A stretch of 64,000 nucleotides of DNA. It comes from Heptranchias perlo (Eukaryota). The notes below the pieces were generated by a model. It had not been told where the DNA came from. It was given only the letters and a program-made list of their open reading frames with translations, and made no database searches. Below are positions 2,528 to 64,000 of the stretch, piece by piece. Location of the stretch: contig NC_090326.1 in NCBI RefSeq assembly GCF_035084215.1, positions 92,690,001 through 92,754,000 on the forward strand. The letters are read 5' to 3'. Numbering within the stretch: position 1 is the stretch's first letter; each line of letters begins with the position of its first letter. Both the position numbers and the translations under genes were made by a program.

Positions 2528-3204
2528 TACTGATTTATTACTAATCAATTGAAAATTTTAAAATTACACTGTCACTTAAAACCAAAATAGCATGCTAGTT
2601 CAACAGATACAAAAAAAAGCATTTTTTAAAACCAGAACAAAATACTGAATGTGCAAAGGAGTGAAGGTATGAGAATGTTTTCCTCCAGAATACTGCCAAA
2701 GCTACATTACTCATAGCTACGTAAATAAATCAAAATAATTCTTCCCAAAAGAACTGTGTATAAAGCAAGCAGTTTGTTCATCTGGAAATTAGTTCCATTT
2801 CTTCCTAATAGTTTCTGTAATAATCCATTTCAATTTCAGTTAAAAGCTACATCTTAGTTCAGCCAACACCCTTTCATCTGTGCAAATCTGATGGTGGTGG
2901 GGGGTCAGAGGGGCAATGTTACTCTCCCTTCTAATTAAGGCAGGGACCTCAGGCTATAGTACATGATACCATCAGCCTACTTACTAAATTTGATGCAAAT
3001 CAGCCAAAACAATTTCAAGCTGAGACAATGTACACACCACAAAAAAAAAAGTCAATGATTTTGTGTTTCACCAGAACAGAGCTTTTAAGCAAGGGATCGA
3101 TAAAAAGACACGGAATTTACATACTGAATTTATTTCTAATCAATTAAAAATGTTAAAATTACACAGTGTCACTTAAAACCAAAATAGCATGCTATTTCAT
3201 CAGA
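2528..3204 (+). repeat. Imperfect ~80-bp direct repeat pair (2528-2607 and 3122-3204)
   Basis: TACTGA(A)TTTATT.CTAATCAATT.AAAAT.TTAAAATTACAC..GTCACTTAAAACCAAAATAGCATGCTA occurs twice. Confidence 0.85.
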
Positions 3205-4129
3205 ACAAAATCTAAAGACTACAGCTCTAAAACATAGTGGTCAGATGCTGAATCCAATCCACATCTCCCCTCACACAGCAATTTATGCTGAACCAAGAGT
3301 AGGTACTTGCCTACTGAAAAAAGGAAGACAAAAAAGGGAACAAGTGCCCAACTGCTCCTGTACCCTTCTAGTCACTAGCTAAAGGTGGTAATGGCAAAAG
3401 CCTGACCTCTCATCAGGGCCTGAGATGAGTCGGGGTGCAAAAAAACTGCTCATTGGTGAAATAATGTCTGTTGGAAGTCCACTAATGCTGTATTTATATA
3501 ACAGTGCTGCCACTGCAGAAAGCACCCACTCCCTCCAGCAGCAGCACCACAATATAAATTAGATGGAGGTAGTGCCTCCAGCGTCATGGTTATCCACCTC
3601 TTGAGGTGGATTTTCCCTGCATCACTAGGGGCAAAGCCAAATTAGTGGCAAACAAGCTGCCACCGCTTACCAAGGGCAGGCTGCAGCACTTTAAGTATTA
3701 TTAGACTGTATGGGTCTTCCCCAACTTCGAGAGCCAGTAAATTAAAACAGGACAAATTCAGAGCAACAATGACCATAACATACCGTGGAACCACTTTGAA
3801 GCCTTTCTGCAATTTACACATGCCATAAAAGTCAGTTTACAGAGTTGGCAAGCTACTGTCAATGAGAAGATGAGAGACCATATAGCACAACATTGTAAGT
3901 TCTCTCCTTCCCAACCCAAAGTAATAGAGAGGAAGTATTAAACATAACCTATTGGAAAGTGTTAATGTGAACGATCAGATTAATGTGCTTTTCTACCTTT
4001 AGATGGAATCAGACCAACCATTCAGTGCAATATGTAAAACTGGTAACTTTCCAAAAGGATCAGGCTTATTTACTTCAAGTGGTCTTCACAGTATTCATTA
4101 TTTCTTAACCTGTAATCAACGGGTTAACT

Positions 4130-11328: not shown

Positions 11329-11507
11329 CAACGTAGTTGATGCTTAACTGCCCTTTGAAGTGGCCTAGCAAGCCACTCAGTTGTATCAAACAGCTGCACT
11401 GCAGCAGTTCAAGATGAAGGCCCACCACCATCTTCTCAGGGAAACTAGGGATGGGCAATAAATGCCGGCCTTGCCAGTGACGTCTACTACCTGAGAATGA
11501 ACTTTTT
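11329..11507 (+). mobile_element. Short non-autonomous derivative (SINE) of the tRNA-headed LINE family B, 5'-truncated
   Basis: First half CTTAACTGCCCTTTGAAGTGGCCTAGCAAGCCACTCAGTTGTA matches the 5' body of the LINE at about 16247-16300 (reverse complement). Second half CTGCAGCAGTTCAAG...CACCACCATCTTCTC...GGGCAATAAATGCCGGCCTTGCCAG matches the LINE 3' end at about 21023-21120. Confidence 0.85.
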
Positions 11508-13949: not shown

Positions 13950-14047
13950 CCACACTGACACTTCACCTGACGAAGGAGAAAAGCTCCGAAAGCTTGTGAT
14001 TTCAAATAAAGCTGTTTGACTATAACCTGGTGTTGTGCGACTCCTTA
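13950..14047 (+). mobile_element. Penelope-like element terminal-repeat fragment
   Basis: Contains a hammerhead core followed by AATAAA and CTATAACCTGGTGTTGT; an inverted piece of the same sequence occurs at 55006-55030. Confidence 0.7.
13963..13999 (+). ncRNA. Minimal type I hammerhead ribozyme motif (Penelope-type)
   Basis: TCAC-CTGACGA-A-GGAG(AAAAG)CTCC-GAAA-GC-TT-GTGA: stem I TCAC/GTGA, core CUGANGA and GAAA, stem II GGAG/CTCC, palindromic stem III region AAGCTT, NUH site CUU. Confidence 0.7.
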
Positions 14048-16578
14048 GATGGAGATGGTCATTGCTTGGCACTTGTCTGGCGCGAACGTTACTTGCCACT
14101 TGTCTGGCGCGAACGTTACTTGCCACTTATCAGCCCAAGCCTGGATGTTGTCCAGGTCATGTTGCATACGGGCACGGACTGCTTCATTATCTGAGGGGTT
14201 GCGAATGGAGCTGAACACTCTGCAATCATCAGCGAACATCCCCATTTCTGACCTTATGATGGAGGGAAGGTCATTGATGAAGCAGCTGAAGATGGTTGGG
14301 CCTAGGACACTCCCCTTAGGAACTCCTGCAGCAATGTCCTGGGGCTGAGATGATTGGCCTCCAACAACCACTACCATCTTCCTTTGTGCTAGGTATGACT
14401 CCAGCCACTGGAGAGTTTTCCCCCTGAAACCCATTGACTTCAATTTTACTAGGGCTCCTTGGTGCCACACTCGGTCGAATGCTGCCTTGATGTCAAGGGC
14501 AGTCACTCTCACCTCACCTCTGGAATTCAGCTCTTTTGTCCATGTTTGGACCAAGGCTGTAATGAGGTCTGGAGCCGAGTGGTCCTGGCGGAACCCAAAC
14601 CGAGCAGGTTATTGGTAAGTGCCGCTTGATGGCACTGTCGACGACACCTTCCATCACTTTGCTGATGATTGAGAGTAGACTGATGGGGCGGTAATTGGCT
14701 GGATTGGATTTGTCCTGCTTTTTGTGGACAGGACATATCTGGGCAATTTTCCACATTGTCAGATGGATGCCAGTGTTGTAGCTGTACTGGAACAGTTTGG
14801 CTAGAGGCGCGGCTAGTTCTGGAGCAGAAGTCTTCAGCACTACAGCTGGGATGTTGTCGGGGTCCATAGCCTTTGTTGTACCCAGTGCACTCAGCCATTT
14901 CTTGGTATCACGTGGAGTGAATCAAATTGGCTGAAGACCAGCTTCTGTGATGGTGGGGATATCGGGAGGAGGCCGAGATGGATCATCCACTCAGCACTTT
15001 TGGCTGAAGATGGTTGCAAACGCTTCAGCCTTGTCTTTTGCACTCACGTGCTGGACTCCGCCATCATTGAGGATGGGGATGTTTACAGAGCCTCCTCCTC
15101 CTGTTAGTTGTTTAACTGTCCTCCACCATTCATGACTGGATGTGGCAGGACTGCAGAGCTTTGATCTGATCCGTTGGTTGTGGAATCGCTTAGCTCTGTC
15201 TATAGATGTTGCTTCTGCTGCTTAGCACGCATGTAGTCTTGAGTCATTTTTATATACGCCTGGTGCTGCTCCTGGCACGCTCTTCTGCACTCCTCATTGA
15301 ACCAGGGTTGATCCCCTGGCTTGTTGGTAATGGTAGATTGAGGAATATGCCGGGCCATGAGGATACAGATTGTGCTGGAATACAATTCTGCTGCTGCTGA
15401 TGGCCCACAGCGCCTCATGGATGCCCAGTTTTAAGCAGCTAGATCTGTTCTGAATCTATCCCATTTAGCACGGTGATAATGCCGCACAACACGATGGATG
15501 GTGTCCTCAGTGCGAAGACGGGACTTCATCTCCCCAAGGGCTGTGTGGTGGTCACTCCTACCAATACTGTCGTGGACAGATGCATCTGCGACAAGTAGAT
15601 TGGTGAGGACGAGGTCAAGTAGGTTTTTCCCTCGAGTTGGTTCACTCACTACCTGCCACAGGCCCGGTCTGGCAGCTATGTCCTTTAGGGCTCGGCCAGT
15701 AGTGGTGCTACCGAGGCACTCGGTGATGGACATTGAAGTCCCCCACCCAGAGTACATTCTGTGCTCTTGCTACCCTCAGTGCTTCCTCCAAGTGTGCTCA
15801 ACATGGAGGAAGACTGATTCATCAGCTGAGGGAGGACAGTAGGTGGTAATCAGCAGGAGGTTTCCGTGCCCATGTTTGACCTGATGCCATGAGATTTCAT
15901 GGGGTGCCCGAGTCAACATTGAGGACTCCCAGGGCCACTCCCTCCTGACTGTATATCACCGGACCACCACCGGTGGGTCCATCCTGCTGGTGAGACAGGA
16001 CATACCCAGGGATGGTGATGGAAGAGTCTGGGACGTTGGCTGAAAGGTATGATTCTGAGAGTATGGCTATGTCAAGCAGTTGCTTGACTAGTCTGTGGGA
16101 CAGCGCTCCCAATTTTGGCACAAGTCGCCAGATGTTCTTGAGAAGGACTTTGCAGGGTCGACTGGGCTTGGTTTGCCTTTGTCGTGTCCGGTGTCTGGTG
16201 GTCCATCTGGTTTTATTCCTATTCTGACTTTTTTTAAGCGAGATTTTACAACTGAGTGGCTTGCTGGGCCATTTCAGAGGGCAATTAAGAATCAACCACA
16301 TTACTGTGGGTCTGGAGTCTAGGCCAGACCGGGTAAGGACGGCAGGTTTCCTTCCCTAAAGGACATTAGTGAACCAGATGGGTTTTTATGACAATCCGGT
16401 AGTTTCATGGCCACCATTACTGATACTAGTTTTTTTTTTAAATTCCAGATTTTATTTAATTAATTGAATTTAAATTCCCCAGCTGCCATGGCGGGATTTG
16501 AATTCACGACTCCAGATTATTAGTTCTGGCCTCTGGATTACTAGTCTAGTAACATAACCACTAAGCTACCGTACCCCC
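14048..16578 (-). mobile_element. Non-LTR retrotransposon family B (CR1/Jockey-group-like EN-RT, single ORF) with tRNA-derived 5' head; 3' end missing; frameshifted
   Basis: 5' end GGGGGTACGGTAGCTTAGTGGTT with box A at 16558-16568 and box B at 16494-16505. ATG at 16301 is in frame with APE motifs KVLLKNIWRL...DIAILSESYL; later LLDLVLTN and GRSDHH; RT motifs WKIAQ.CPVHKK..KSNPANYRPISLL, ALDIKAAFDRVWH, GVPKGSVLGP, MFADD. No ORF1 between head and EN. Confidence 0.9.
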
Positions 16579-16579
16579 A

Positions 16580-18860
16580 TTGTGTTGTCTCTAATTAGTA
16601 CAGCTACACCCTCTTGTTCGGTCCTGTTCCTTACATAATCATGTTTCAGTTATCCCTACCACATCTGGCTCCTTGCTATGAATTACTGCCTCTGGTTCCC
16701 CCATTTTGTTTCGGATGCTGTGCAGGCAATTTGATTTGTTTTTAATAACTGTTCCACTTAATTTATTTTTAAGTCATTTTTACTCATGTTCTATAACTGT
16801 ATTTGTTGCCTGACTGTTTACCCTTATTTCTTACCTTGATCTGACCTTTACTCTCATTTCCTATATCTTCAAACTTATGTTATCCTCATCAGATCCCTCC
16901 CCCCGTCTTACTAGTTTAAAGTCCTATCGACAACCCTATTTATCCTTTCCGTTAGGACACAGGTCCCATTCTGGTTCAGGTGGAGCCCATCCCAGCAGTA
17001 CAGCTCCTTCCTGTCCCAATACTGGTGCCTGTGTCCCATGAAATGGAACCCTTCCTTCCCACATCACTCTTTCAGCCACGCATTCACCTTCCTGATCTGT
17101 TTATCTCTGTATATTAGCACGTGGCTCAGGTAGCAATTCCAAGATTACCATCTGTGAGGTCCTGTTTTTTTTTTAAGTTTAGTTTCTAATTCCTGATATT
17201 CTCTTAGCAGGATCTCCTTCCTTTTCTTCCCTATGTCATTGGTCCCAACACGGACCACGACAACTGGATCTTTCCAAGTTCCTCTCCAGATGCTCCGAGA
17301 TATCCTTTACCCTTGCACCAGGTAGGCAACACACCCTCCTGGACTCTGTCGCGACTACAGAGGACGCCAATAATGCTCCTAATTATCGAATCCGCTATGG
17401 CTACAACCTTTCTGTTCTGCTCTTCCACCACCTCCCCCCCCCCCCCCCCCCCGAACTGCCTCCTGCTGCAGTGTGCCATGCTTAGCATTCTGGCTGTCCA
17501 CCCCGCAACCTGCATCCTTATCGTCACAGATAGCAAGTACATTGTACCTATGCAGGTACAGCAAGCACTTAGGAAGGCAAATGGTATGTTAGCCTTTATT
17601 GCAAGGGGGTTGGAGTACAAGAATAAGGAGGTCTTGCTGCAATTATACAGGGCTCTTGTGAGACCACACCTGGAGTACTGTGTACAGTTTTGGTCTCCTT
17701 ACCTTAGGAAGGATATACTTGCCTTAGAGGGGATGCAACGAAGGCTCACTAAATTTATTCCTGGGATGAGGGGGTTTTCGTATGAGGAGAGATTGAATAG
17801 AATGGGCCTATATTCTCTGGAGTTTAGAAGAATGAGAGGTGATCTCATTGAAACGTATAAGATTCTTAGAGGGCTTGACAGGCTGTTTCCCCCGGCTGGA
17901 GAGTCTAGAACTAGGGGTCATAGTCTCAAGGTGGCGGCCATTTAAGATCGAGATGAGGAAAGATTCACTCAGAGGGTTGAGAATCTTTGGGATGCTCTAC
18001 CTGAGAGGGCTGTGGATGCTCAGTCATTGAGTATATTCAAGACTGAGATTGATGGATATCTGGACACTAAGGGAATCAAGGGATATGGGGATAGGGCGGG
18101 AAAGTGGAGTTGTGGTAGAAGATCAGCCACGATCTTATTGAATGGAGGAACAGGCTCGAGGGGCCTTATGACCTACTCCTGGTCCTATTTCATATGTTCT
18201 TATGTTGGATAGGACCAGTGTCTTCAGGACCTCCTTCGCTACCTCCTCTTGGATCCCCTTACCCTGCTGACTTAGGTGTCGGAGTGTCTCTAATTCGCAC
18301 TTCAGCTCAAGGTCACTGAGCAGAAGTGACTCAAGGCAGAGACACTTCCTGCAGTCGCGGCAATACAGGACAGTCTCTGTGTCCACAGACTCCCACGTAC
18401 CGCAGTCCCAACACACAGCCTGCAAAGCCATTATTTAATATTAATTTAATTCTAGAACTAGTAGAAGCGCTTACGGTCTAAATTATGTTTAGTGGGTGGA
18501 TTTTAGCTTGATTTTAAATCAATTAGTAATTAATATTCTGAATATTTAATTATTTATTTATAGTTTATATTTAAAAATATAGCGTGTGTAGTAAATTAAA
18601 GGCTTAGTTTAATTTCCTCAGATTCCACCGCTCCCCCCTCTGTGCTGACTATGACGTCACCTTTTGAGATTTTTCCCTGGATTTGTTTAATTGCTGCAGT
18701 TCCCACGCTTTTTAACCATTTGTTTAGCTTTAAGGCTATTTAACGAACACAATAAAAACATTACCAACCACTAAACACAATGACCAATAAAAGACACTTA
18801 CCAATAAACTAAATAATCACTGACTTCCCTCGGCGCTCCTCTGTGCCAGTACTTTTTGAC
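16580..18860 (-). mobile_element. CR1 LINE 5' portion (5' UTR and ORF1 zinc finger/esterase), decayed and interrupted
   Basis: MALQAVCWDCGTWE...CRDCRKC (18135-18431) and VVAIADSIIRSI...CCLPGARVKDISE...VGTNDIG pieces (about 17200-17420) are homologous to ORF1 at 60550. Confidence 0.8.
17548..18205 (+). mobile_element. CR1 3' fragment nested in the preceding CR1 ORF1
   Basis: MQVQQALRKANGMLAFIARG...LVRPHLEYCVQFWSP, followed by the tail CATATGTTCTTATG. Confidence 0.93.
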
Positions 18861-19865: not shown

Positions 19866-21219
19866 GGGCACAATTTTAACATTGAAAATCGGGTGGGTTG
19901 GGTGCAGGAGGGGCATTGAAAATCGCAACTATTTCAGACTGATTTCCAGTTTTCACCAGGGTGGGACGAGGAGCAGGCAACCAACCCGCTCCCAGGAAGT
20001 GGGTTGGTAACTAAAACCTTTCAAGGAGGCTGCGGGCCTCCATTTTTACAGATTTTGCAATTTCAACCTCAGGGGCCACGTGAGAGTAGGCAAGGCGGCC
20101 CAAAACTGCAGGTAAGTGCCTTTCTGGCATAGCTTGTAGGTCCGGAGGAGCAGGAGTGCTTCCTCCAGGCCCAACAAGCCCTACCTGCAGCGATCCCCCT
20201 ACCATCGCGGACCCCAGCCTCTGATCTCTGAACCCCCCATGCCAACGATCTCCGACCCCCTCCTCCCCAATGATCGCAGACTCCCGCGAAAACCCCCGAA
20301 CCAGACACCCACCCCACCCAGTGACTGACCCCCGATCCCTCCCCCCATGCCCATCAGTGCCCCGTGCCCACCCATGTCCATCAGTACCCACCCATGCTCC
20401 CCCCCCCCCCACCCAATCCATACAATCAAAGACTTACCTTTTCATGTCCTCTCCCTGGCTGCTCTCCCTGGGGTCACCATTGACCAGAAACTTAACTGGT
20501 CCAGCCACATAAATACTGTGGCCACAAGAGCAGGTCAGAGGCTGGGCATTCTGCGGCGAGTGACTCACCTCCTGACACCCCAAAGCCTTTCCACCATCTA
20601 CAAGGCACAAGTCAGGAGTGTGATGGAATACTCTCCACTTGCCTGGATAAGTGCAGCTCTAACAACACTCAAGAAGCTCGACACCATCCAGGACAAAGCA
20701 GCCCGCTTGATTGGTACCCCATCCACCACCCTAAACATTCACTCCCTTCACCACTGGCACACTGTGTCTGCAGTGTGTACCATCCACAGATGCACTGCAG
20801 CAACTCGCCAAGGCTTCTTCGACAGCACCTCCCAAACCCACGACCTCTACCACCTAGAAGGACAAGGGCAACAGGCACTTGGGAACTACACCACCTGCAC
20901 GTTCCTCTCCAAGTCACACACCATCCCGACTTGGAAATACATCGCTGTTCCTTCATCGTCACTGGGTCAAATCCTGGAACTCCCTACCTAACAGCACTGC
21001 GGGAGAACCTTCACCACACGGACTGCAGCGGTTCAAGGCGGCGGCTCACCACCACCTTCTCAAGGGCAATTAGGAATGGGCATTAAATGCTGGCCTCGCC
21101 AGCGACGTCCACATCCCATGAAAGAATAAGAAAAAAAAAATCACTGTTCTTCCGGGTTTCCTGTCTGCAATTTGACACCATCCCCACCCCCTTCCCGGCT
21201 CGGAGTCAAAATCATGCCC
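19866..21219. mobile_element. Harbinger-type MITE interrupted by a LINE
   Basis: TIRs GGGCACAATTTTAAC (19866) and GTCAAAATCATGCCC (ends 21219); the left TIR nearly matches the Harbinger end GGGCATAATTTTAAC at 44022. Confidence 0.75.
20468..21140 (+). mobile_element. Family B LINE 3' portion with poly(A)
   Basis: GVTIDQKLNWSSHIN...IYKAQVRSVMEYSPLAW...KSWNSLPNS; 3' UTR GGGCATTAAATGCTGGCCTCGCCAGCGACG then an A-rich tail. Confidence 0.92.
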
Positions 21220-55904: not shown

Positions 55905-56232
55905 TTTTTTTTAAAATTCGTTCACGGGATGTGGGCGTCGCTGGCGAGGCCAGCATTTATTGCCCATCCGTAATTGCCCTTGAGAAGGTGGTGGTGAGCC
56001 GCCATCTTGAACCGCTGCAGTCCGCGTGGTGAAGGTTCTCCCACAGTGCTGTTAGGAAGGAAGTTCCAGGATTTTGACCCAGCGACGATGAAGGAACGGT
56101 GATATATTTCCAAGTCGGGATGGTGTGAGACTTGGAGGGGACCGTGCAGGTGGTGTTGTTCCCACGTGCCTGCTGCTCTTGTCCTTCTAGGTGGTAGAGG
56201 TCGGGGGTTTGGGAGGTGCTGTCGAAGAAGCC
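55905..56232 (-). mobile_element. Family B LINE 3' fragment with poly(A)
   Basis: RSFIVAGSKSWNFLPNSTVGEPS; homologous to 20812-21140. Confidence 0.92.
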
Positions 56233-56552
56233 TATACCTTTATCTACTGAAATTTTACATGCGGATATTAGTGCTTCTGCTATCTCCTCCCTAATGAATA
56301 TCCGCGGGTGGAATCCACCTGGACCCGGAGTCATATCCTCCTTAAGTTTGGCAAGCCTGCCTAGTATTTCCTTTCTTTCTATCTTAACTTTTGTAATAAT
56401 CCTCGATGACTTCTTCTGTTGTAGTTTCCTCTCTGTTTGCCTCAGTTTTCACTGAAGAGGCTAAGTACCTATTCAGTATCCTTGCCATTTCAGTATCATC
56501 TCCTATGAGTTTACTTGCTCATCCCTTAGTGGCCCTCTCCTAATTCTCCTTT

Positions 56553-59456: not shown

Positions 59457-60322
59457 CCAAAGGCTATGGGCCCCGACAACATCCCGGCTGTAGTGAAGAC
59501 ATGTGCTCCAGAACTAGCCGCGCCTCTAGCCAAGCTGTTCCAGTACAGCTGCAACACTGGCATCTACCCGACAATGTGGAAAATTGCGCAGGTATATCCT
59601 GTCCACAAAAAGCAGGGCAAATCCAATCCAGCCAATGACCGCCCCATCAGTCTACTCTCAATCATCAGCAGAGTGATGGAAGGTGTCGTCGACAGCGCAA
59701 TCAAGCGGCACTTACTCACCAATAACCTGCTCACCGATGCTCAGTTTGGGTTCCGCCAGGACCACTCGGCTCCAGACCTCATTACAGCCTTGGTCCAAAC
59801 ATGGACAAAAGAGCTGAATTCCAGAGGTGAGGTGAGAGTGACTGCCCTTGACATCAAGGCAGCATTTGACCGAGTGTGGCACCAAGGAGCCCTAATAAAA
59901 TTGAAGTCAATGGGAATCAGGGAAAACTCTCCAGTGGCTGGAGTCATACCTAGCACAAAGGATGATGGTAGTGGTTGTTGGTGGCCAATCATCTCAGCCC
60001 CAGGACATTGCTGCAGGAGTTCCTCAAGGCAGTGTCCTAGGCCCAACCATCTTCAGCTACTTCATCAATGACCTTCCCTCCGTCATAAGGTCAGAAATGG
60101 GGATGTTCGCTGATGACTGCACAGTGTTCAGTTCCATTCGCAACCCCTCAGATAATGAAACAGTCCGAGCCCGCATGCAGCAAGACCTGGACAACATCCA
60201 GGCTTGGGCTCGTAAGTGGCAAGTAACATTCGCGCCAGACAACGACCATCTCCAACAAGAGAGTGTCTAACTACCTCCCCTTGATATTCAACGGCATTAC
60301 CATCGCCGAATCCCCCACCATC
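59457..60322 (+). mobile_element. Family B LINE RT segment, interrupted at its 3' side by the CR1
   Basis: KAMGPDNIPAVV.KTCAPELA, ALDIKAAFDRVWH, GVPQGSVLGP, MFADD; closely similar to 14048-14870. Confidence 0.93.
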
Positions 60323-60549
60323 TACTTATCTACAGTAACTAAAGTAAAAAGAAAGGGAAGGTCTGCAGGCCTTATAGGAAGTAGCGTTTATTTTTTAGTG
60401 AATCAAGGTCCCGAGTGTAGTTAACATTCTCTAAATTAAGAACAATTTAAAGGAATAAACTCCTTAAAGGGAGTGGGGTAAGTAGTTTTTCTTTCCTTTT
60501 TTTTCTCTTGACATTGTAGTTGTTGTTAAGCTAACTTAAGGGTTAAGTC

Positions 60550-61497
60550 ATGGCAGGAGATCCCACAGCCGTGTCATGTTCCTCTTGTGGGATGTGGGAA
60601 TTCAGGGATCCTTCCTGTATCCCTGATTCCTTCACCTGCGGGAAGTGTGTCCAGCTGCAGCTATTGTTTGACCGCTTGACGGCTCTGGAGCTGCGGATGG
60701 ACTCACTTTGGAGCATCCGCGATGCTGAGAAAGTCGTGGATAGCACGTTCAGTGAGTTGGTCACACCGCAGATAAAAATTACTGAGGGAGATAGTGAATG
60801 GGTGACCAACAGACAGAGGAAGAGTAGGAAGGCAGTGCAGGGGTCCCCTGCGGTCATCTCCCTCCAAAACAGGTATACCGTTTTGGATACTGTTGGGGGA
60901 GATGGCTCACCAGGGGAAGGTGGCAGTGGCCAGGTTCATGGCACCGTGGCTGGCTCTGCTGCACAGGAGGGCAGGAAAAAGAGTGGCAGAGCTATAGTGA
61001 TAGGGGACTCGATTGTAAGGGGAATAGACAGGCGTTTCTGCGGACGCAACCGAGACTCCAGGATGGTATGTTGCCTCCCTGGTGCAAGGGTCAAGGATGT
61101 CTCGGAGCGGCTGCAGGACATTCTGGAGGGGGAGGGTGAACAGCCAGTTGTCGTGGTGCATATAGGCACCAACGATATAGGTAAAAAACAGGATGAGGTC
61201 CGACAAGCTGAATTTAGGGAGTTAGGAGTTAAACTAAAGAGTAGGACCTCAAGGGTAGTAATCTCAGGATTGCTACCAGTGCCACAGGCTAGTCAGAGTA
61301 GGAATGACAGGATAGCTCGGATGAATACATGGCTTGAGAGATGGTGCAAGAGGGAGGGATTCAAATTCCTGGGACATTGGAACCGGTTCTGGGGGAGGTG
61401 GGACCAGTACAAATTGGACGGTCTGCATCTGGGCAGGACTGGAACCAATGTCCTAGGGGGAGTGTTTGCTAGTGCTGTTGGGGAGGGTTTAAACTAA
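60550..61497 (+). CDS. CR1 ORF1 protein (N-terminal CxxC..CxxC zinc finger/coiled coil plus SGNH/GDSL esterase-like domain)
   Basis: Intact 315-aa ORF: CSSC...CGKC, IVIGDSIVR, VHIGTND, DGLHL. Confidence 0.93.
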   Translation: MAGDPTAVSCSSCGMWEFRDPSCIPDSFTCGKCVQLQLLFDRLTALELRMDSLWSIRDAEKVVDSTFSELVTPQIKITEGDSEWVTNRQRKSRKAVQGSPAVISLQNRYTVLDTVGGDGSPGEGGSGQVHGTVAGSAAQEGRKKSGRAIVIGDSIVRGIDRRFCGRNRDSRMVCCLPGARVKDVSERLQDILEGEGEQPVVVVHIGTNDIGKKQDEVRQAEFRELGVKLKSRTSRVVISGLLPVPQASQSRNDRIARMNTWLERWCKREGFKFLGHWNRFWGRWDQYKLDGLHLGRTGTNVLGGVFASAVGEGLN

Positions 61498-61532
61498 TAT
61501 GGCAGGGGGATGGGAACCGATGCAGGAAGTCA

Positions 61533-64000
61533 GTGGGAAATAAAGTGGTGACAGAAACAAAAGGCAGTGAGGGAGAGTGTACAGAACATGACCGGACAGA
61601 TGGTCTGAGAAAGCAGGGCAAAGACCAAGGGAAGTCTAGATTAAACTGCATTTATTTCAATGCAAGAAGTCTGATGGGCAAGGCAGAGGAACTCAGGGCA
61701 TGGATGGGTACATGGGACTGGGATGTTATAGCTATTACTGAAACATGGCTAAGGGAGGGGCAGGACTGGCAGCTCAATGTTCCAGGGTACAGATGCTATA
61801 GGAAAGATAGAGCAGGAGGTAAGAGAGGAGGGGGAGTTGCGTTCTTGATTAGGGAGAACATCACGGCAGTAGTGAGAGGGGATATATCCGAGGGTTCGCC
61901 CACTGAGTCTATGTGGGTAGAACTGAAAAATAAGAAGGGAGAGATCACTTTGATAGGATTGTACTACAGACCCCCAAATAGTCAACGGGAAATTGAGGAG
62001 CAAATATGTAAGGAGATTACAGACAGCTGCAAGAAAAATAGGGTGGTAATAGTAGGGGACTTTAACTTTCCCAACATTGACTGGGACAGCCATAGCATTA
62101 GGGGCTTGGATGGGGAGAAATTTGTTGAGTGTATTCAGGAGGAATTTCTCATTCAGTATGTGGATGGCCCGACTGGAGAGGGGGCAAAACTTGACCTCCT
62201 CTTGGGAAATAAGGAAGGGCAGGTGACAGAAGTGTTAGTGAGGGATCACTTTGGGACCAGTGATCATAATTCCATTAGTTTTAAGATAGCTATGGAGAAG
62301 GATAGGTCTGGCCCAAAAGTTAAAATTCTAAATTGGGGAAAGGCCAATTTTGATGGTATTAGACAGGAACTTTCAGAAGTTGATTGGGAGAGTCTGTTGG
62401 CAGGCAAAGGGACGTCTGGTAAGTGGGAGTCCTTCAAAAATGTGTTAACCAGGGTTCAGGGTAAGCACATTCCTTATAAAGTGAAGGGCAAGGCTGGTAG
62501 AAGTAGGGAACCTTGGATGACTCGAGAGATTGAGGCCCAAGTCAGAAAGAAGAAGGAGGCATATGACATGCATAGGCAGCTGGGATCAAGTGGATCCCTT
62601 GAAGAGTACAGAGATTGCCGGAGTAGAGTTAAGAGAGAAATCAGGAGGGCAAAAAGGGGACATGAGATTGCTTTGGCAGATAAGGCAAAGGAGAATCCAA
62701 AGAGCTTCTACAAATACATAAAGGGCAAAAGAGTAACTAGGGAGAAAGTAGGGCCTCTGAAGGATCAACAAGGTCATCTATGTGCGGAACCACAAGAGAT
62801 GGGTGAGATCCTAAATGAATATTTCGCATCGGTATTTACGGTTGAGAAAGGCATGGATGTTAGGGAACTTGGGGAAATAAATAATGATGTCTTGAGGAGT
62901 GTACATATTACAGAGAGGGAGGTGCTGGAAGTCTTAACGTGCATCAAGGTGGATAAATCTCCGGGACCTGATGAAATGTATCCCAGGACGTTATGGGAGG
63001 TTAGGGAGGAAATTGCAGGTCCCCTAGCAGAGATATTTGAATCATCGACAGCTACAGGTGAGGTGCCTGAAGATTGGAGGGTAGCAAATGTTGTGCCTTT
63101 GTTTAAGAAGGGCGGCAGGGAAAAGCCTGGGAACTACAGACCAGTGAGCCTGACATCTGTAGTGGGTAAGTTGTTAGAGGGTATTCTGAGGGACAGGATC
63201 TACAGGCATTTGGAGAGGCAGGGACCAATTAGGAACAGTCAGCATGGTTTTGAGAGAGGAAAATCATGTCTCACGAATTTGATTGAGTTTTTTGAAGGGG
63301 TAACCAAGAAGATAGATGAGGGCTGTGCAGTAGACGTGGTCTACATGGACTTTAGCAAAGCCTTTGACAAGGTACCGCATGGTAGGTTGTTACATAAGGT
63401 TAAATCTCATGGGATCCGAGGTGAGGTAGCCAATTGGATACAAAATTGGCTTGACGACAGAAGACAGAGGGTGGTTGTAGAGGGTTGTTTTTCAAACTAG
63501 ATGTCTGTGTCCAGCGGTGTGCCTCAGGGATCGGTGCTGGGTCCGCTGTTATTTGTTATTTATATTAATGATTTGGATGAGAATTTAGGAGGCATGGTTA
63601 GTAAGTTTGCAGATGACACCAAGATTGGTGGCATTGTGGACAGTGAAGAAGGTTATCTAGGATTGCAACAGGATCTTGATAAATTGGGCCAGTGGGCCGA
63701 TGAATGGCAGATGGAGTTTAATTTAGATAAATGTGAGGTGATGCATTTTGGTAGATCGAATCAGGCCAAGACCTACTCCGTTAATGGTAGGGCGTTGGGG
63801 AGTGTTATAGAACAAAGAGATCTAGGAGTACAGGTTCATAGCTCCTTGAAAGTGGAGTCACAGGTGGATAGGGTGGTGAAGAAGGCATTCAGCATGCTTG
63901 GTTTCATTGGTCAGAACATTGAATACAGGAGTTGGGATGTTTTGTTGAAGTTGTACAAGACATTAGTAAGGCCACACTTGGAATACTGTGTACAGTTCTG
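61533..64000 (+). pseudogene. CR1 ORF2 (APE endonuclease plus RT) with a nonsense codon at 63498-63500
   Basis: YFNARSL, IAITETWL, YRPPNS, GDFNFP, SDHN, PGNYRPVSLTS, QHGF, YMDFSKAFDKV; after TAG (Trp position) the same frame continues [22 protein letters not shown]...SKFADDTKIG. Confidence 0.93.

Follow-up and report, generated by a model that had tools for sequence, protein, structure and literature searches.

According to the available text of PMC5786205, Pol II transcribes LINEs, and SINEs have no capacity to encode a protein. Several LINEs (RTE, Ingi, Vingi and some of the L2/CR1 group) have one endonuclease-reverse transcriptase (RT) open reading frame (ORF) and no ORF1; the passages of PMC3894237 that cover such elements also note briefly that a LINE promoter may be 'pol II (or pol III)' and that a rethink would be needed were IGR-type IRESs to exist in non-LTR elements. 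Among SINEs, the tRNA-headed DeuSINEs of sharks and coelacanth, SacSINE1 and LmeSINE1, are of particular relevance. In the parts of the reports that are available, SacSINE1 consists of a tRNA head, a Deu domain and a tail common to an L2-clade LINE (PMC5499810), has a length of 463 bp (PMC2746220) and has a partner LINE given as CR1-4_DR-like (PMC3747384). SINE bodies can arise from LINE 5′ UTRs via internal deletion, according to passages of two sources (PMC5786205; PMC4494074). A description of an autonomous Pol III LINE was not found in the open literature searched; Repbase, Dfam and subscription journals lie outside that scope, and a database entry may exist.

The element described here is a LINE copy on the minus strand at positions 14048-16578 of a 64,000-nucleotide stretch (the window) of the 3.25 Gb genome of Heptranchias perlo. 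The original prediction was of a protein-coding LINE with a tRNA-type head, no ORF1 and a sense strand purged of Pol III terminators. The ORF remnant (14050-16245) displays a basic N-terminal extension, an AP endonuclease and a reverse transcriptase, with FADD at 14225-14236. It carries stops and frameshifts and is 3′-truncated; the copy spans family positions 3-2537 of 3299 and has a 27-nt tandem duplication (14075-14128) at its truncated 3′ end. A short repeat directly past this end (~13960-14040) recurs in loci L012, L019, L038, L040 and L045. A frame upstream of the copy (16914-17346) was considered as a possible ORF1 and rejected: it is a CR1 ORF1 remnant (40% identity), absent from other copies, into which the window LINE copy is inserted. 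Related sequences in the window are an internal LINE-family fragment on the plus strand (59458-60325, 95% to family positions 1742-2625), a 5′-truncated LINE copy on the plus strand with the tail and a short poly(A) (20470-21135, 95.5% to family positions 2632-3299) and a 5′-truncated copy on the minus strand whose tail ends in TTTT and an A-run (55905-56233). The sequence near 11330-11500, which had been counted as a LINE copy, proved to be a 5′-truncated SINE form on the plus strand (11329-11500), with the body end joined to the tail (matches to family positions 276-332 and 3186-3271).

The column majority of 30 copies is ~3,300 nt long and comprises a ~330-nt leader, a 967-codon frame, a 3′ UTR of ~60 nt and an A-run of 8-10; the leader has no long frame, in agreement with the predicted lack of ORF1. 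Pfam domains PF03372, PF14529 and PF00078 (AP endonuclease and reverse transcriptase) are present in an intact natural copy, L229. Of 30 young loci, 12 have frames of at least 900 codons. Among common non-CpG variants of the ORF body, 25 of 35 leave the amino acid unchanged. The copies are dispersed and 5′-truncated, have an A-rich tail and lack an LTR; no consistent target-site duplication was detected in 19 full-length copies. Exact genome matches number 6,046 for the leader end and 37,986 for the tails, both lower bounds that include some SINE copies. With its endonuclease and RT ORF and its dispersed copies, the LINE is an autonomous APE-type non-LTR retrotransposon. As in the single-ORF APE-RT LINEs mentioned above, there is one ORF, a set of 5′-truncated copies and an A-run tail. 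The RT has 28% identity to the CR1 ORF2 of the same genome and falls in a clade separate from CR1 (support 99) in a quick tree built with no named references; for these reasons, and because there is no ORF1, the LINE is not assigned to the CR1 clade proper. Its closest RT relatives are unnamed (best 39-40% identity).

The tRNA-type head is at 16480-16577 of the window copy. Both predicted promoter boxes are present, box A at 16558-16568 and a box B with one mismatch at 16494-16505. The latter reads GAATTCAAATCC in the window copy, with a G-to-A change; the family form, GTTCAAATC, is found in 62 of 74 copies scored. Box A is TAGCATAGTGG in 43 of 63 copies scored and fits the type 2 box A consensus. 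The family 5′ end, GGG, is 8 nt before box A and is sharp, as G is at the first three positions in 48-52 of 58 copies and the letters beyond are flank-like. A further G beyond GGG is present in 13 of 58 copies, which is the flank level, and there is no variable extra G. The Rfam tRNA model gives 16.5 and 19.2 bits in two young copies, below the 29-bit cut-off, and ARAGORN detects no tRNA in the window. RNase P processing of the head was considered and rejected, the acceptor stem being unpaired, by eye, in predicted folds. A tandem duplication of an anticodon-arm-like part is found between boxes A and B (16494-16550); it is present in the old SINE majority and apparently missing from the old LINE copy in L184.

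A single copy could owe such a head to a chance SINE insertion, and the association was therefore followed across the family. Of sixty copies chosen through the start of the ORF, 40 extend to family position 15 or less, 17 break off inside the leader and 3 end at the ORF start. These represent two sets. An ORF-start-only query yielded 39 other copies, or 37 after two near-duplicates were dropped (28 reach position 15 or less, 8 end in the leader and 1 at the ORF start), and 23 young copies were matched through the ORF (12, 9 and 2, respectively). Flanks of the 20 truncated copies have no alternative 5′ UTR in common; three pairs match briefly and look like other repeats. With a head-only query, 27 of 30 loci continue into the ORF, two are short forms and one ends at the A-run, and a pattern search giving 30 loci in genome order found 27 with the ORF, 19 of the 30 loci reaching position 15 or less. 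An old LINE copy of 69% identity also has a decayed head and body preceding its ORF. The head is thus family-wide in the full-length copies checked and is not a one-off insertion; no full-length copy with an ORF1 or a different 5′ UTR was found among those examined. In sequencing runs of four other organisms, 31-72% of sampled head-plus-ORF words are present, and the contigs of three of these organisms, aligned to this stretch, cover all 30 bins, which shows the presence of the family rather than the head-ORF junction; among the matches listed, no piece bridges head and ORF. Contigs from four RNA runs aligned to the element give a depth that climbs toward the 3′ end, as copy number does.

Between the head and the ORF are an AT-rich linker and a conserved SINE-type body (16249-16479), common to an older SINE family of which 30 copies were aligned with the LINE leader. 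These old copies, of ~440-450 bp, have head, body and tail in common with the LINE. The body is putatively Deu-like and the old SINE putatively a SacSINE1-like DeuSINE, as layout and length fit published descriptions. The Deu domain is conserved in deuterostome SINEs, and its function is not known. Head, Deu-like body and LINE tail are arranged as in SacSINE1 and LmeSINE1; however, for the partner LINE of SacSINE1 (CR1-4_DR-like; L2-2_CM) the available text reports only the tail as common, whereas the LINE described here also has the head and the body. With tRNA-derived SINEs (SINE2) the LINE has boxes A and B in common, but it is 3.3 kb long and has intact ORFs of 961-973 codons. Young short forms in L061, L072 and L191 have the body joined to the tail at a short shared motif, and such joints are numerous in contigs of sequencing runs. 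These deletion forms are akin to bipartite non-autonomous LINEs and LINE-derived SINE bodies (Bov-tA, SINE2-1_ACar). In the latter, as far as the available text goes, the tRNA head is on the non-coding derivative only, and here it is on the coding element itself. The SINE may be a deletion product of such a LINE, and may equally have been the donor of the LINE head.

Vertebrate Pol III terminates at four or more Ts. The sense strand of the window copy (14048-16578) has no TTTT, 8 TTT and 17 AAAA runs, no TTTT is found in 59457-60340 or 20468-21145, and the CR1 ORF2 of the window (61551-63990) has 7 TTTT runs, all as originally described. The purge of terminators read from this pattern stands in part. 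The absence of TTTT from one copy is within chance (P = 0.017 with a mononucleotide shuffle, 0.125 with a dinucleotide shuffle), and its absence from the family ORF has p = 0.07-0.12 under three codon-aware nulls; zero TTTT was therefore rejected as stand-alone proof, being non-significant under codon-aware and dinucleotide nulls. What holds is an avoidance of TTT across the family. The family ORF has 5 TTT vs 11.6-16.9 expected (p ≤ 0.004, codon-aware nulls), and the column majority as a whole has 0 TTTT and 7 TTT. In L229, TTT is the most depleted of the 64 trinucleotides (5 seen, 12.4 expected). Where synonymous T would create a run of at least three, this copy uses it at 5 of 59 sites, vs 194 of 695 sites elsewhere (Fisher p 0.0006, ratio 0.30); A, C and G have no comparable drop at run-making sites, and A-runs are at expectation. 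Stretches with four T in five bases are also few (3 vs 8.8 expected, p 0.03).

Other elements were used for comparison. CR1 of the same genome has synonymous T at 53 of 102 run-making sites and 230 of 566 other sites, and each of 10 intact ORFs of the young CR1 has 9-11 TTTT. Metagenome relatives with frames of at least 500 codons (48, from 80 loci), most of which are more T-rich than this LINE, have 5-49 TTTT, with ratios all at least 0.63. A Penelope-like ORF of the same genome (L192), with 19% T, has 4 TTTT and 12 TTT in 490 codons; two RTE-like frames of 289 and 244 codons have 1 and 0 TTTT, respectively, but their short length permits no judgement. Low Phe content is common to many relatives. 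The best control for TTT avoidance, a headless sister from the same clade, was not found in this genome, and the closest headless relative, L080, is from an AT-rich host. Base composition, the alternative that might have explained T-run avoidance in full, does not account for the avoidance of TTT.

In 93 copies (246,455 aligned bases) there are 35 TTTT vs 1,475 AAAA, 785 CCCC and 485 GGGG, and the 35 are scattered, with at most two per 10-nt bin. Rare post-insertion changes to T arise at similar rates whether run-making or not, and mutation bias is for that reason not the cause: active lineages have been selected for T-run avoidance, not spared T-runs by mutation. A shorter motif, TVTTT, is reported as a minimal Pol III terminator in the available part of PMC8466645. 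None of the 7 TTT of the family majority is in this form, and an internal terminator, TTTT or TVTTT, is absent from the family sense strand. The signal is thus specific to the strand and to the base, in line with the expectation for Pol III termination.

The tail ends in AATAAA and an A-run. The TTTT noted originally at the extreme 3′ end of two copies is present, at 55916 and 11503, but such tails are a minority (6,043 vs 31,943 exact matches). A role as a built-in terminator was rejected, as 15 of 94 tails have four or more T, and a similar share (14 of 92) was counted for T-runs that precede A-runs in 400 kb of sample DNA, a comparison set that itself includes repeat tails. T plus A length in the tails stays near 11. 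T elongation at short A-tails with age is described in the portion of PMC8466645 available. More generally, A-runs after T become T-runs at roughly constant total length, both in tails and in internal A-runs (55913-55916, L012, L230, L231, L299).

Translation was originally proposed to start at an ATG at 16301 (16299-16301). This triplet is in frame in the window copy, where an extra base adjoins an A-run, but across the family just 16 of 81 copies, and 1 of 27 young ones, have it in frame, and the old SINE majority has ACG at this position. It is one of eight ATGs in the leader (nine are listed, the first of which is flank). Among the 12 young loci with frames of at least 900 codons, eight have ORFs, of 961-973 codons, that begin directly after an in-frame TAA (16246-16248 in the window copy; all 21 young copies scored have TAA, and 26 of 108 copies of any age have TAC). 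Their first Met is at residue 245-250 in six and at 197 and 48 in one each, in every case past the NIWG endonuclease motif at residue 42. Over codons 7-36, all six common non-CpG variants are silent in the main frame and none of the six is silent in the upstream-ATG frame, and common length variants are multiples of three, except for the A-run slip. The main frame is under purifying selection from codon 7. Intact ORFs, synonymous variants and in-frame length variants together place the start, in all likelihood, within the first few codons after the TAA, and these contain no AUG, CUG, GUG or UUG. Initiation in the family thus appears to be non-AUG. A family without an AUG start fits cap-independent translation better than the AUG version of the original prediction, and eight upstream ATGs would hinder scanning. 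The relatives differ in that they mostly have a Met shortly before the endonuclease motif, although gene callers may write Met for other starts; the LINE here lacks both an AUG and TTTT and carries a SINE head.

Directly before the TAA is a hairpin (16252-16277) with a 7-nt loop, C-T-AGC-A-A by column counts and C-C-AGC-A-A in the window copy. C-T-AGC-A-A is an anticodon-loop pattern. Twelve bases past the stem is an in-frame GCT (16237-16239) that is complementary to the loop AGC, a candidate codon mimic or first codon. The hairpin followed by 7-12 nt and GCTA has 6,046 exact genome matches, with the LINE-type spacer in 94 of the 100 matches listed. The old SINE majority has the same loop on a perfect 5-bp GTGGC/GCCAC stem, then a spacer of equal length that differs at 5 of 9 letters and a CpG-decayed GCTA; AGC loop and in-frame GCT are equally spaced in LINE and old SINE, and no compensatory change was seen. 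In the LINE family, but not in the old SINE, the hairpin holds an in-frame ATG-GCC-TAG mini-ORF. In the fold of a young copy the hairpin is in the MFE structure and not in the centroid. Relative to shuffled sequences, the whole leader has z = -2.85 and the body alone z = 0.21, the latter no more stable than shuffled sequence. The T of the loop differs in 31 of 104 copies and ranks first of 3,282 positions. This was considered as a trace of RNA modification and rejected, since other CTAG sites vary likewise, and a DNA-level cause suffices. The T of CTAG sites (family positions 313, 381, 488, 1151, 1802, 1814 and 2180) changes to C, G or A far above other non-CpG positions, which possibly represents a context-specific mutation process in this genome.

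The type 6, or dicistrovirus IGR, IRES is non-AUG and factor-free; a pseudoknot mimics an anticodon-codon pair, and GCU is the commonest first codon (PMC12221177, available passages). The LINE leader is similar in its anticodon-like loop, A-rich spacer and in-frame GCT, and in an apparent non-AUG start directly after a structured element. It differs in having 3-4 possible pairs, and PKII, PKIII, SLIV and SLV were not identified by eye; Rfam IRES families have no match to E = 10. The hairpin loop may tentatively be said to resemble pseudoknot I of the type 6 IRES, a resemblance and not a membership, noticed after the fact and with 3-4 pairs. That the Deu domain should be a factor-free, anticodon-mimicking IRES in a Pol III-transcribed LINE, and a ribosome anchor for a SINE capturing a new reverse transcriptase, is a speculative and rather unlikely extension.

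Pol III transcription is the best reading of the head and of the avoidance of T-runs, and a quite likely one. That the family is a Pol III-transcribed 3.3-kb single-ORF LINE with a SINE-type leader and cap-independent, non-AUG translation, all parts taken jointly, is given a probability of about 0.62. By this model, TFIIIC would bind boxes A and B, and Pol III would read through the 3.3 kb, terminators having been purged, and end at the next T-tract in the flank. The LINE RNA would then be copied from its internal A-run, as for T-minus SINEs. Translation would proceed without a cap from a non-AUG codon just past the body; in the weakest step, itself less likely than not, the loop AGC would pair with the in-frame GCT, mimic an anticodon-codon pair and set the frame. 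The SINE, which has this head, body and tail too, would represent a non-coding short form mobilised by the LINE protein.

A Pol II transcript is an improbable alternative, in which the leader would serve as a Pol II promoter or RNA structure, the ORF would be reached by scanning from a cap, a short upstream ORF (such as ATG-GCC-TAG) and non-AUG reinitiation, much as for human L1 ORF2, and T-avoidance would have another cause. The mini-ORF is a feature of the LINE that the old SINE lacks, and the tail has AATAAA and an A-run at its end, both of which are compatible with this possibility, as is the published view that Pol II transcribes LINEs and that SINEs do not code for protein (PMC5786205, available text). 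One of the three 5′ G residues could be cap-derived, but the extra G beyond GGG stays at the flank level (13 of 58) and does not vary. Against a Pol II transcript are also the eight upstream ATGs, the boxes A and B intact in the family majority with a 5′ end where a SINE starts, and an avoidance confined to sense T, with A-runs at expectation, as Pol III termination predicts.

Two other possibilities concern the protein. With either polymerase, an AUG in the leader might reach the ORF by A-run frameshift or stop read-through. The ATG at 16301 is, after all, in frame in 16 of 81 copies, with its frame open for ~70 codons, and TAC copies have only one stop, TAG-CAA, between ATG-GCC and the ORF; TAG-CAA is a leaky stop context. 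This start is nevertheless very improbable. An interruption (GCTACGAAAAG) breaks up the A-run of the young subfamily, where 1 of 27 copies has the ATG in frame and both stops, TAG and TAA, occur (TAA in 21 of 21); variants are, moreover, synonymous in the main frame and not in the upstream one. Still less probable is a long Pol III RNA that does not code and is mobilised in trans as a passenger, with the protein made from the few copies that host Pol II promoters transcribe by read-through. In favour of a passenger, translation of uncapped Pol III RNAs is not the norm, and there is no AUG start. However, read-through copies would still be without an AUG, and the intact frames of at least 900 codons in 12 of 30 young loci, together with the 25 of 35 synonymous ORF-body variants, point to selection in cis on the RNA that is copied.

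By current understanding mRNA is not a Pol III product, and SINEs are non-coding by definition. Should the Pol III model be true, this family, which numbers tens of thousands of copies, would provide a vertebrate example of a natural Pol III transcript that encodes protein. The location of a SINE central domain directly before an ORF start makes the function of conserved SINE domains testable. If the model holds, a compact LINE that needs one ORF, brings its own promoter and is translated without a cap would also be of interest to RNA-based gene insertion.

Searches for relatives gave unnamed endonuclease-RT clusters only in the ESM Atlas, no relative of the LINE in viral contigs and no tRNA in 44 of 80 metagenome loci scanned. 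L080, a metagenome relative, has an ATG and 20 TTTT runs, with no tRNA or box match in 949 nt upstream. This upstream stretch (L080:1-949) has no long ORF; two similar stretches in it, beginning GGGCGGATGAGACC, give the impression of small ribozyme cores. A fragment of 53% identity was considered as a sister family in the same genome and rejected, as it retrieves only itself; it and similar fragments of 69-78% identity look like old copies of this LINE lineage, to judge from the sequence, and a search with one 69-78% fragment returned young LINE copies. The sole named close protein match to the LINE ORF is the publicly deposited gene model P0070 of a shark aldo-keto reductase, which contains ~210 residues of the LINE ORF in an 86%-identical stretch; the LINE stretch in this model is probably an annotation artefact. 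The 490-codon minus-strand ORF in L192 is labelled Penelope-like from a reading of its translation, and Penelope-like elements are also noted in L177 and L038. A young CR1 family, with copies 98% identical, is represented at 61300-64000 of the window and in L160-L174, and many loci carry an intact ORF1 (316 codons) and ORF2 (949-1035 codons).
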